The notes under the pieces were generated by a model. The model did not search any database. It was not told where the DNA came from and saw nothing but the letters and a program-made list of their open reading frames with translations. 32,000 nucleotides of DNA from Pyrodictium occultum (GTDB taxonomy: Archaea; Thermoproteota; Thermoprotei_A; Sulfolobales; Pyrodictiaceae), in NCBI RefSeq assembly GCF_001462395.1, contig NZ_LNTB01000001.1, forward strand, positions 1,440,001 through 1,472,000. The letters run 5' to 3'. Made by a program: the position numbers and the translations under genes. Shown piece after piece: positions 10,644 to 30,691 of this stretch (position 1 is its first letter; each line of letters begins with the position of its first letter).

Positions 10644-12640
10644 CCCCTCCCTCCTCCCGCGGGGGCGGCGGTCACGGGCTCCAGCGTGGTCGCGTTGAAT
10701 GCCTTCACCCGGGGCAGTGAGTAGGGAGAGACGGTGTATATGGCATCATCTATGTAGACGCTCCTAGCGGCGCCAGAGTGGCCGAGCACCCCCAGCAGCT
10801 CCAGCCCTCCACGCCGTGCATCAAGCTTCACCACAGCCACACCGCCGTACACCTTCTCCATGCCGGTGGCCCCCTTCAGGGGCACGGCCACAGCGCCGCT
10901 AACCGGCAGCAGTATGTAGCCATGCCTAGGGTCGAAGGTGAAGGCCCGGTGGCCCAGCCTCGGGTCCAGCACCGGGCTCCACACGTAGCCCCTGCCCCCG
11001 ACGTGGACCCTGCCCAGTACCTCCACGCCTCCACGCTGAACCTTGTAGAGGCTCACCCTCAGCGCGGGTCCATCCCGCCCCACGCCGATGAGGAGCGTTT
11101 CGTTTACCGGGTAGAGGTACTCGTCGAACCCCGGAGACTTGATGAACCCCACCACCCTCGGCCTACGTGGATCGCTCAGGTCCACGGTGAATAGCGGGTC
11201 AATCCTCCGGTACGTTACGAGGTAGAGCCGGGGCCCTAGGAAGAGGGTAGCGTGCACCCTCTCCCCCACCACGATGCTGGTGTTCGCTATCGCCCTCAGG
11301 TTCGTGGAGTTGAACAGGTAGAGGCTCACTCTCGTAACCCACCTTCCCTCCTCGAAGCCCTGCTCCTCGACGACGGCGCGGAGCACGCCACGGTACTCGT
11401 CGAGCATCCACTGCTTCCTCACCACGCCGGGTAGGCGGGCGACAGCCCTGACGGACAGCCTTGGCCCCGGCTCCACCGCCAGCTCGACAAGCAGGCTCCG
11501 GGACCACCGGCTTGGAGACCCCCATAGCCTCCGGAGATCCGCCGCCAGCTCCCCGGGGGTCACGTTGCCCCTGTCTCCCAGGATCCGGTGGAGCTCCTCC
11601 ACCCCCGGAAGCACTACGTAGAGCCGGCCTCCACGCGGCATATACATGGCGGAGGGGTGGGCCCCTATGAGGGTCAGCGTGGAGACACGGCCGGTCCTGA
11701 GGCTGAAGGCAGCCACTATGGTCTCGAGCGGCTCTGGGCCCACGATGAGCGGCGGCTCCGGGACGGGGGTGGGGCCGCTGCCCGCCCCGAGTAGCAGGGG
11801 GCGCACGAGGAAGCCGGTATAGGTTATCAGCAGGAGCGTATCGTTGTAGAGCCTCGCGTCGTAGAAGCTGCCGGTGACAGCCCTAGCCCATAGGGGCTTC
11901 ATCCCAGGCCCTAGCTTGATCACCCAGGTCCTGGAGGGGAGCAGCCATGGGCTCCTAGCCTCCTCGGCCACCACCACCAGCTGGCCGTTCTCCATGAATA
12001 GGCCTCTCACCCACACGCGGTGCACAACCCTGGCGACGGGCTCTACCCTGCCATGGGATATCAGTGCCAGCTCCTCGTCGCCTACAAGCTCCTCCACCTC
12101 CCGGCTAGCGTTGAAAACACTGACAAGCCTGAGAGCCTCCGGCGGGTATACATTGTACACCTCAGCCGCGCTGCCTGCTGCAACGGCTATGTGGGTGCCG
12201 TTAGTCTTGACTATATCGGGCTCGTCCACCCCGGCTACCTGGACGTTAGTGGAGCTATACTCCGGTGCAGCCCCCACCTCCCTCGTGGCCGGGCCCGCGG
12301 GGGACGCCCCACCCAGCGGCATCACCGGGCTCTGAGGCCTCAGCCTAGCAAGCTCCTCCACAACGCTCCACGGCACTCTGTAGCCATAGCCCGTCCATGA
12401 CACGGCTAGACTGGTGTTAGCCCGGCCGCCGGCCGTCGTAGTGGACGGCGGCCCTGCCCCGCTCCCCGCCGCGGCGGTAACAGTGGTGGTCACCGTGGCG
12501 GTCGCTGCCTCCGGCTGGGCCCCGCCCGGCCTCCCGTGGATGGAGCCGAGCATGTAGCCGGCAGCAATACCGAGGAGGAGGACAGCGACCATAATCGTGA
12601 TGCTGCTGTACGAGATCCTGCCCAAAGCGTGGTGCACCAT
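10640..12640 (-). CDS. N-terminally anchored secreted beta-propeller domain protein (Beta_propel/PF09826-like)
   Basis: 666 aa. It has a TM anchor 'ITIMVAVLLLGIAAGYML', a Thr/Ala-rich linker 'ATATVTTTVTAAAG...STTTAGG', and 'NVQVAGVDEPDIVKTNGTHI', which is typical of that family. The start codon is embedded in the TGGTGCACCA palindrome. Confidence 0.7.
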   Translation of the reverse strand: MVHHALGRISYSSITIMVAVLLLGIAAGYMLGSIHGRPGGAQPEAATATVTTTVTAAAGSGAGPPSTTTAGGRANTSLAVSWTGYGYRVPWSVVEELARLRPQSPVMPLGGASPAGPATREVGAAPEYSSTNVQVAGVDEPDIVKTNGTHIAVAAGSAAEVYNVYPPEALRLVSVFNASREVEELVGDEELALISHGRVEPVARVVHRVWVRGLFMENGQLVVVAEEARSPWLLPSRTWVIKLGPGMKPLWARAVTGSFYDARLYNDTLLLITYTGFLVRPLLLGAGSGPTPVPEPPLIVGPEPLETIVAAFSLRTGRVSTLTLIGAHPSAMYMPRGGRLYVVLPGVEELHRILGDRGNVTPGELAADLRRLWGSPSRWSRSLLVELAVEPGPRLSVRAVARLPGVVRKQWMLDEYRGVLRAVVEEQGFEEGRWVTRVSLYLFNSTNLRAIANTSIVVGERVHATLFLGPRLYLVTYRRIDPLFTVDLSDPRRPRVVGFIKSPGFDEYLYPVNETLLIGVGRDGPALRVSLYKVQRGGVEVLGRVHVGGRGYVWSPVLDPRLGHRAFTFDPRHGYILLPVSGAVAVPLKGATGMEKVYGGVAVVKLDARRGGLELLGVLGHSGAARSVYIDDAIYTVSPYSLPRVKAFNATTLEPVTAAPAGGGRG

Positions 12641-12750
12641 TAGGGTCTGAGCCCGAGGCCACGCTGCGATATGCTGACATCTACGCTAAAATATCTCTGC
12701 CGCCCGGCCCCGGAGCTCCAACATGCCTTCACAAGCCTTCGACAGCGTTC

Positions 12751-12948
12751 TCAGTGGCCTGCGGTGGCGGCGGCGTGGAGCGCGACCAGGAGCATCGCAG
12801 CTACGAGCATCAATACTATCCCTGTGAAGGTCTCGAAGCCCCTCAGCAGGCCATCGGCCTCGTCTCTGCGCTTGCGGAGCAGCCTAGCGCTGGCGAAGAG
12901 TACAAGAGCTATAGCTGCTCCCAGGCTGGGTATGATTAGGGGCGGCAC
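12751..12948 (-). CDS. putative small two-TM membrane protein
   Basis: 65 aa with a GTG start preceded by GGGGTGG 4 nt upstream. Two hydrophobic helices flank a basic loop, 'RLLRKRRDEADG'. No homology was recognised. Confidence 0.4.
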   Translation of the reverse strand: MPPLIIPSLGAAIALVLFASARLLRKRRDEADGLLRGFETFTGIVLMLVAAMLLVALHAAATAGH

Positions 12949-29900: not shown

Positions 29901-30549
29901 CTGGAAAGATGAGGCAGACTTAGCTGAGGCCTACATGGAATCAATGAGCTACGCGTATGGTGAAGGCATATACTCTCAAAAGGCGAGGCAACTATTCGAA
30001 GACCTGCTAAAGAGGGTCGACATGGTTACACAAGTCAGAGACTCACAAGACTATGAGATTACGGATCTAGACCACTACTACGAGTTCTTCGGCGGCTTAG
30101 CGAAGTCCGTTGAGCAGCTAAGAGGGAAGAAGCCAGAGATGCTGATAGCCGACACAACCGGGGAGATGGTGAAGGTCGAAGACGTTAGAGAGTCGATAAC
30201 AAGGGGGACAATAACGAGAACTTTAAACCCGAAGTGGATAGAAGCTATGCTGAAACACGGGTTCCACGGAGCCCAGAAGATAGCTGATAGAGTAGAGTAT
30301 CTCCTTGGCCTAGCTGCGACTACCGGGGCGGTCGAGAACTGGGTCTGGGACAAGGTTGCTGAGCGCTTTGTGCTCGATGAAAACCTCTTCGAGAGGATAA
30401 AGAGCAGCAACCCATATGCAGCAAAGAAGATCCTAGAGAGGCTTCTTGAGGCAAGCGAAAGAGGTTACTGGAAGGCGGACAGGAAGGTGCTTAAAAAGAT
30501 AAAAGAGAGGTATATGGAGCTTGACGCGATGCTTGAGGAGGAAGCTTAG
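26974..30549 (+). CDS. cobN: full-length CobN/ChlH-family chelatase large subunit (second, lower-GC paralog)
   Basis: 1191 aa. It carries '[40 protein letters not shown]' and '[13 protein letters not shown]' and is collinear with the split pair. The start could be GTG 26974, GTG 26977 or TTG 26983. Confidence 0.9.
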   Translation: [1191 protein letters not shown]

Positions 30550-30691
30550 AGGCTCCTTTATGCTGCGAGCCTCATTCCTGCAGGGCTCCGCCGCATCACG
30601 CTTTTAGGGCCTGGCCGTAGTGCACCACGAGGTACTCCTGTCCTCCGCTCCACTCTTTTCGTAGTCAACGGCTATAGGATGCTGTTTGATG

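Follow-up and report, generated by a model that had tools for sequence, protein, structure and literature searches.

In archaea, repressors such as MDR1, Phr and TrmB occupy sites that overlap the TATA box or lie just 3′ of it. MetJ and other ribbon-helix-helix (RHH) proteins use operators built from 8-bp palindromic boxes, each contacted by the beta-ribbon of one RHH dimer, with cooperative binding. In Escherichia coli, the NikR operator at nikABCDE is GTATGA-N16-TCATAC, with half-sites about 22 bp apart, and serves the nickel-dependent repression of a nickel importer. A delta-proteobacterial NikR signal, GTGTTAC-N13/14-GTAACAC, was predicted by Rodionov et al. (2004) as a 27-28 bp inverted repeat upstream of nikMNQO-type energy-coupling factor (ECF) transporters, often with nikR adjacent, and in the same work NikR half-sites were noted to diverge between lineages while the structure was kept. 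Here, we analysed a palindrome, GGTGCACC, which recurs in a 32,000-nt stretch of the Pyrodictium occultum genome (contig NZ_LNTB01000001.1, positions 1,440,001 to 1,472,000; hereafter the window) at the promoters of two CobN-type chelatase loci and of beta-propeller genes. We conclude that this palindrome is a real, conserved cis-regulatory element, and that it is most probably a lineage-specific NikR operator.

Occurrence and placement of the palindrome in the window

The motif had been pointed out in a first-pass annotation of the window, and all of its coordinates were exact on recount. GGTGCACC occurs at 12631, 20864, 20887, 21114 and 26954, which makes five copies against 0.43 expected from dinucleotide shuffles, a count reached in none of 100 shuffles. 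The longer palindrome TGGTGCACCA is exact at 12630 and 20863 and matches at 9 of 10 positions at 20886, 21113, 26953 and 30618, giving six sites with at most one mismatch where 0.79 were expected. Moreover, GTGGTGCAC or its complement was found at 12629, 26955, 26974 and 30620 (four copies, 0.14 expected). About 92% of the window is coding; every copy of GGTGCACC is non-coding or overlaps a start codon, in agreement with the annotation, and its worry that intragenic copies had been missed was not borne out, as no exact 8-mer lies deep within any gene. The further claim that the motif is found only at gene 5′ ends holds for most copies but fails for the one at 30619, which lies between two convergent genes. 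When the exact boxes of the window were pooled with those of two other loci, L001 and L011, 8 of 9 were non-coding or start-overlapping. The copy at 21114 had rightly been called a duplicate of that at 20887, and it does not count as a separate copy, as it lies within a perfect 227-nt tandem duplication; with this copy excluded, 7 of 8 independent boxes were non-coding or start-overlapping (binomial p ~4e-7). The motif was not found to be a general archaeal core promoter element (B recognition element (BRE), TATA or initiator); the box is present at only 4 of the ~15 intergenic or promoter regions of the window.

Two pairs of boxes were identified, at the divergent promoter of cobN-1 and a propeller gene (operator A) and at cobN-2 (operator B); coordinates are listed in Table 1. 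At site A, the first-pass placing of TGGTGCACCA at the centre of a 46-bp palindrome proved correct, with the divergent TATA boxes AATATAAA and TTTATATT on either side of it. The two boxes of operator A have a start-to-start spacing of 23 bp and bracket the plus-strand TATA box in the form GGTGCACC-AGATTTATATTCTCT-GGTGCACC, an architecture that recurs in L004, L011, L030 and L001 (3609). The 227-nt unit, which contains the promoter and the first 59 codons of the propeller gene, begins one base left of the palindrome centre, and its junctions have a CACCAG microhomology in common. Its first copy leaves a 76-codon out-of-frame open reading frame (ORF; 20922-21152 including the stop codon), the true propeller start being ATG 21149 in the second copy, while the true cobN-1 start is ATG 20808 (802 amino acids (aa), a 100% match to the public P. 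occultum protein). The duplication was not present in L001, L004 or L005; either it arose very recently or it is an artefact of assembly.

At site B, the spacing is 22 bp and the second box abuts the start codon of cobN-2, either TTG 26983, as in the public annotation (1188 aa), or GTG 26974. Both boxes are placed between the start codon and a TATA-like element, ATTAAT at 26945-26950, which lies 4 nt upstream of the GTGCAC core in the first box; TATTTATA is found at 26924-26931, upstream of the operator. The 436-bp gap 5′ of cobN-2 (26538-26973) holds no convincing ORF, Rfam match or detectable nikR remnant.

Two further boxes are single. The box at 12631 has no partner at 21-23 bp, and the 12-mer around it at the 666-aa propeller gene, ATGGTGCACCAC, is identical to the 12-mer abutting the propeller start of L001. 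The orphan box at 30618-30627 has neither a partner at 21-23 bp nor a gene start nearby. It had also been noticed that the 666-aa gene and cobN-2 share an M-V-H start, but this probably comes from ORF over-extension, with cobN-2 annotated from the TTG. The box ATGGTGCACCA(C/T) contains an ATG, and in L091 the box gives a false 'MVHH' ahead of the obligatory CbiM start MHIPDG; the shared M-V-H is probably a by-product of the operator and not a peptide feature.

Box pairs in orthologous promoters and beside nikR genes

CobN-1 orthologues were taken with their flanking DNA, and the promoter regions were compared. The boxes are kept at the divergent cobN-1/propeller promoter of L004, L005 and L001 (CobN-1 identity 74%, 72% and 60%, respectively), so the test of conservation that the annotation had proposed came out in favour of its motif. 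The divergent cobN/propeller synteny is kept in L001 and L005 and, judging from position, probably also in L004, where the partial divergent ORF was not identified. A second divergent promoter of L001, between a Usp gene and a 47-aa ORF, carries GGTGCACC-CACCATCTTATAAT-CCTGGACC. The spacings in the window are 23 bp (20864/20887) and 22 bp (26954/26976). At the other loci, boxes stand 23 bp apart in L004 and twice in L001, and 22 bp apart in L005 and L011. Thus, the boxes are usually paired 21-23 bp apart and bracket or directly follow an archaeal TATA box, and the pair form GGTGCACC-N13-15-GGTGCAC(C/A/T) was found in the window, L004, L005, L001, L011, L030, L031, L035 and L091. The distance from TATA to the GTGCAC core is 4-7 nt throughout, whereas the distance from box to start codon varies between 0 and 55 nt, and the constraint therefore acts on promoter DNA rather than on mRNA or translation.

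Farther orthologues (L002, L003 and L006, 56-60% identity) have degenerate boxes or none, and no box was found in L013. A strict scan of 596 Gb of genomes for GGTGCACC-N3-W7-N5-GGTGCAC gave only 4 bacterial chance matches, a metagenome scan with the propeller protein alignment gave no match, and a literature search for the motif string returned primers and unrelated matches only. In L013 (304-13549; locus guanine-cytosine (GC) content 0.44), a 77% cobN-2 orthologue with no GTGCAC box upstream stands in a long operon together with a double Peripla_BP_2 protein, FecCD, an ABC ATPase, a second CobN (1274 aa) and a further Peripla_BP_2 protein, and here CobN chelatases are again tied to an importer.

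The same pairs were found next to nikR. In Stetteria hydrogenophila, the cobN-2 orthologue (78% identity) is divergent from a 137-aa gene with RHH and NikR_C domains, and their intergenic region carries CCTGCACC-AGCATATACATAAC-GGTGCACC with a 22-bp spacing, N14 between the boxes and the TATA box bracketed; a further box, CGTGCACC, abuts the nikR start. With an alignment of these NikRs, 80 metagenomic nikR loci (690 kb) were collected, in which pairs with at most two mismatches and 21-23 bp spacing occurred four times against 0.38 expected. All four best pairs lie at regulatory positions (L091, L030, L031 and L035; Table 1), and the L035 arrangement with a degenerate second box was seen in L039 and L040. 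An unbiased inverted-repeat count over 45 nikR upstream regions ranked GTGCAC...GTGCAC first, on only 2-3 loci. In Stetteria, L030, L031, L035 and L091, the genome that carries the pair also encodes a NikR, and the archaeal NikRs of this comparison show no variation at the nickel ligands H82, H93, H95 and C101. Two marks of a NikR operator were found, namely two dyad half-sites about 13-16 bp apart (27-31 bp overall) and a place in the promoters of nickel uptake genes and/or nikR (L091, L031, L030 and Stetteria). In L031 (6697-7086), the nikM downstream of the perfect operator ends after 13 codons (MHIPDGFLDPIWS*) and is followed only by an ABC ATPase fragment; this is a decayed nikMNQO operon with the operator kept.

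In the low-GC loci L014, L018 and L025, nikR adjoins PhoU_div/PHO4. The nikR genes of L014 and L018 are boxless, and autoregulation is therefore not universal. Upstream of these genes are GGTAATTA(CC)-like palindromes instead of GGTGCACC (L014 9961-9996, L018 9910-9942 and L025 1128-1146), which could belong to another class of operator or be AT-shifted forms of the box. In both L014 and L018, nikR is two genes away from a gene for ThiN or a ThiD/ThiN fusion. The window has a weak candidate for a box-TATA-box arrangement 5′ of thiD/thiN (5241), GGTAGACC-CCTTAAAGCAGCCTT-GGAGCACC at 5182-5212, which with its 3 mismatches is at about chance level.

Candidate regulator and competing explanations

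From these sequence comparisons, we propose, with a probability of roughly 0.65, that the GGTGCACC boxes form the two halves of a bipartite operator to which a nickel-responsive RHH repressor of the NikR type binds. The first-pass annotation had suggested a shared operator that defines a small regulon, made up of both propeller genes, the ECF module and the two chelatase loci. Support for this comes from promoter-confined boxes, a fixed position relative to TATA, conservation in orthologues, and the occurrence of the same pair beside nikR and metal transporters. For P. occultum itself, we infer NikR as the binding protein, nickel as the signal and repression as the outcome. Several observations weigh against a NikR operator. 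No P. occultum protein was among those listed by a word-indexed and insensitive search with the Stetteria NikR (only 193 candidates scored). The pair is found at a minority of the 80 nikR loci, and the low-GC loci L014, L018 and L025 encode close NikR orthologues without nearby GTGCAC boxes. Furthermore, the boxes at 12631 and 30619 are single, the latter at no promoter, and the ECF module of the window has no CbiM/NikM-type S component.

How such a repressor would act can be sketched from the geometry of the sites. A NikR tetramer has an RHH dimer at either end. Each dimer would read one 8-bp palindromic box, and the boxes, 21-23 bp apart, are separated by about two helical turns. On such a pair, nickel-loaded NikR would exclude TBP/TFB or RNA polymerase. 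At site A, the pair would clamp the plus-strand TATA box, and the central box takes the BRE position immediately 5′ of the minus-strand TATA box; therefore, one complex could silence both divergent operons. At cobN-2, the pair would cover the stretch from TATA to the start codon. The nickel-loaded repressor would thus shut off the cobN-1/chlD operon, the propeller-ECF importer operon and cobN-2, and probably the 666-aa propeller gene, and these operons would be derepressed at low nickel.

An operator for some other factor at the same genes, such as a ModE-like, DtxR-family or Lrp/other dimer-of-dimers protein responding to iron, cobalt, molybdate/tungstate or a tetrapyrrole, is an alternative to which we give about one chance in five. 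A NikR of P. occultum is putative only, archaeal NikR homologues may sense other metals, and candidates of other families are found at some loci: a ModE-like HTH_1+PBP_like gene lies ~9 kb away in L001, and the gene string of Stetteria also includes a DtxR gene and feoAB. The Desulfovibrio ModE signal cgGTCACg-N14-cGTGACCg, which also consists of two 8-mers with an N14 spacer, speaks for this alternative and against a NikR operator alike. However, nikR is the only regulator gene found repeatedly beside the pair (L011, L030 and L091), to which nikM in L031 can be added; no DtxR-like 19-bp palindrome was found, and the upstream region of feoA in Stetteria has no box.

The remaining explanations concern the nature of the motif itself. 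That the 26955 and 30620 copies are att-like sites, left by insertion of a mobile or horizontally acquired cobN-2 cassette, was the alternative raised in the first-pass annotation, and GTGCACCAC does form a 9-bp direct repeat on both sides of the gene. The GC content of cobN-2 (0.50) departs from that of the neighbouring operon (0.57) and the right flank (0.73), with a step from 0.52 to 0.66 at ~30600 which coincides with the orphan box. The closest named relative of the protein is in Stetteria (78%), followed by Thermococcus zilligii (75%), and these values, together with the GC content, suggest an inter-phylum transfer among hyperthermophiles. However, the repeat is only 9 bp long and is the operator motif, present at three other promoters and at orthologous promoters in other genomes; its left-hand copies make up an ordinary operator pair, complete with TATA box and start codon, and Stetteria cobN has the same upstream operator without flanking repeats. 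Border repeats accompanied by an integrase or recombinase, and often a tRNA, as expected of integration sites, were not found: searches of the window detected no integrase or transposase domain and no tRNA. We consider insertion through such sites very unlikely; the orphan 3′ box could have been left behind by recombination at an earlier operator. At the left GC boundary (14613-14732), no box was found. A role in RNA, as a 5′ hairpin masking the start codon or a ribosome-binding element, is slightly less probable still. The cobN-2 boxes can pair as a 12-bp stem (-21.9 kcal/mol) and several boxes abut start codons, but the z-score of this hairpin is only -1.74, and equally good folds arise in 7 of 200 shuffles. 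Moreover, it is the TATA distance that is constant and not the start-codon distance, the first box of TATA-bracketing sites lies upstream of TATA and would not be transcribed, and no Rfam family match, as expected of a structured 5′ leader or riboswitch, was obtained. Finally, a pattern produced by chance, by Val-His codon usage or by a restriction-site-related distribution of GTGCAC is hardly credible. It is true that the hexamer overall is not significantly enriched (10 copies, 6.3 expected; at least 10 in 11 of 100 shuffles). Strong enrichment is seen for the 8-mer and 10-mer, however, and 7 of the 10 hexamers fall between genes or no more than 10 nt from a start codon, in about 8% of the sequence, while the three deep intragenic ones (11252, 12020 and 17707) are all without the GG prefix. 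Codon usage, which the first-pass annotation had named as a possible refutation, does not account for the pattern, as GTGCAC encodes only 2 of the 11 Val-His dipeptides within gene bodies. Box position and spacing, in addition, are kept across genera.

Gene content and comparison with known operators

Gene products were assigned by Pfam and NCBIfam searches (Table 1). The CobN pieces are 100% identical to public P. occultum proteins. CobN-1 is encoded by two overlapping genes of ~800 and ~525 aa (16826-20808), a split that is common among archaea, natural and not a frameshift because most top archaeal homologues are ~800 aa. The 257-aa neighbour of cobN-2 had no family match. Family searches found no recognisable regulator gene in the window, and tblastn detected no nikR in the 32 kb. 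On the minus strand, the tandem paralogous ORFs at 568-1188 and 1190-1768 combine an N-terminal RHH-like segment with a C-terminal domain (~150 aa) that matches no family; they were rejected as NikR, having no NikR_C domain or metal ligands, and are possible uncharacterised regulators.

Table 1. Promoter elements and genes of the window, and box arrangements at other loci
Locus	Feature	Position	Strand	Details
Window	Single box over first possible ATG of 666-aa Beta_propel gene	12630..12639	-	TGGTGCACCA
Window	Minus-strand TATA box for cobN-1	20853-20860	-	AATATAAA; within 46-bp palindrome
Window	Plus-strand TATA box	20875-20882	+	TTTATATT; within 46-bp palindrome
Window	46-bp perfect palindrome	20845..20890		Centre between 20867 and 20868
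Window	Bipartite operator A	20864..20894		GGTGCACC 20864-20871, 15-nt spacer with TATA, GGTGCACC 20887-20894
Window	Duplicated promoter copy, directly 5′ of real propeller gene	21094..21121	+	Half box GCACCA 21094-21099, TATA 21102-21109, GGTGCACC 21114-21121
Window	227-nt tandem duplication	20867..21320	+	20867-21093 = 21094-21320, 100% identical
Window	Bipartite operator B at cobN-2	26954..26983	+	GGTGCACC 26954-26961, 14 nt, GGTGCACT 26976-26983
Window	Orphan box	30618..30627		TAGTGCACCA (9/10); convergent intergenic region 3′ of cobN-2
Window	666-aa membrane-anchored Beta_propel (PF09826) protein gene	10640..12640	-	
Window	M17 peptidase	13008-14612	+	
Window	cobN-1 operon	14733..20808	-	
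Window	ChlD-like AAA+/VWA subunit	14733-16769	-	cobN-1 operon
Window	CobN C-part	16826-18403	-	cobN-1 operon
Window	CobN N-part	18400-20808	-	cobN-1 operon
Window	Propeller-ECF operon	21149..26537	+	
Window	Membrane-anchored PQQ-like beta-propeller	21149-22822	+	
Window	514-aa protein	22825-24369	+	Extracellular domain and C-terminal multi-transmembrane domain
Window	Duplicated ABC ATPase	24344-25702	+	
Window	CbiQ-like T component	25674-26537	+	
Window	cobN-2	26983..30549	+	Full-length CobN/BchH-like chelatase subunit
L004	Promoter			TTATAAAAAA-GGTGCACC-TGATATAAATGTACC-GGTGCACA-aaaatt-ATG; spacing 23 bp, TATA bracketed
L005	Promoter			TATTTAAGTG-TGTGCACT-N14-GGTGCACC; spacing 22 bp
L001	Promoter			ATGGTGCACCAC abutting propeller start; CATAAATACC-TGGTGCACA toward cobN; weaker partner each, 23 bp
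L091	Pair			Between nikR and divergent cbiM/nikM-PDGLE-cbiQ operon
L030	Pair			Between nikR and Peripla_BP_2/FecCD (BtuF/FecCD-type) ABC operon; TATA bracketed
L031	Pair			Directly 5′ of ORF starting MHIPDGFLD, hallmark NikM/CbiM N-terminus
L035	Pair			Before ZnuA/FmdE/ABC transporter operon

Archaea with no need of CobN for cobalamin synthesis widely encode homologues of it, and none of the four Desulfurococcales genomes examined in a 2009 survey was found to have a B12 pathway. In Methanothermobacter marburgensis, CobN1 and NikR1 are induced under nickel limitation. The window pair lies at a CbiQ/CbiO-type ECF operon from which CbiM is absent, and the genes under the operators, which encode ATP-driven chelatases, anchored propellers and an importer of the ECF type that has extracellular domains, would fit the acquisition of nickel (or nickel and cobalt) rather than cobalamin synthesis. 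More tentatively, the orphan class-I chelatases of these hyperthermophilic archaea (CobN plus a ChlD-like AAA+/VWA subunit), the membrane-anchored propellers and the unusual ECF importer might form a NikR-controlled nickel-scavenging machine, an idea to which we give about one chance in four. At low nickel, a nickel chelate or metallo-tetrapyrrole would be captured outside the cell and imported, and the ATP-driven chelatase would extract or transfer the metal. If this is true, the operator is the first cis-regulatory handle on the function of the orphan chelatases. The main value of a NikR operator here would be to place orphan CobN-type chelatases, with their propeller and ECF partners, in a nickel-responsive regulon. 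Together with the published induction of a CobN homologue in a methanogen under nickel limitation, the operator leads to the prediction that these genes belong to the nickel-starvation response. It also provides a consensus for regulon prediction in Thermoprotei, (T/G)GTGCACC-N13-15-GGTGCAC, and would be an example of an archaeal metalloregulator gripping a TATA box on either side.

In comparison with described systems, the pairs have the same core geometry as the E. coli NikR operator, in which 6-7 bp half-sites are bound by two RHH dimers of one tetramer, here in the form GTGCAC-N15-17-GTGCAC. Unlike that operator, the half-site sequence differs, and each box is itself an 8-10 bp palindrome, hence single boxes occur too; moreover, the promoter is of the archaeal TATA/TFB type, with the TATA box often bracketed by the pair, and the targets include CobN-type chelatases and beta-propeller proteins. 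The delta-proteobacterial half-site GTGTTAC resembles the GTGCACC/GTGTAC of the boxes here, but that signal lies in bacterial sigma-70 promoters, whereas 13-15 bp separate the 8-mers here and the regulon content is different. Short 8-bp palindromic boxes are shared with the met-boxes of MetJ; however, met-boxes are directly adjacent in tandem and the ligand is S-adenosylmethionine, whereas the boxes here stand two helical turns apart and a metal is proposed. MDR1, Phr and TrmB belong to other protein families with other motifs, and GGTGCACC is not a known target of any of them (nothing relevant was returned when the literature was searched for the string), but as with these repressors, the operator of P. 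occultum is placed where a bound protein would block the recruitment of TBP/TFB or RNA polymerase.

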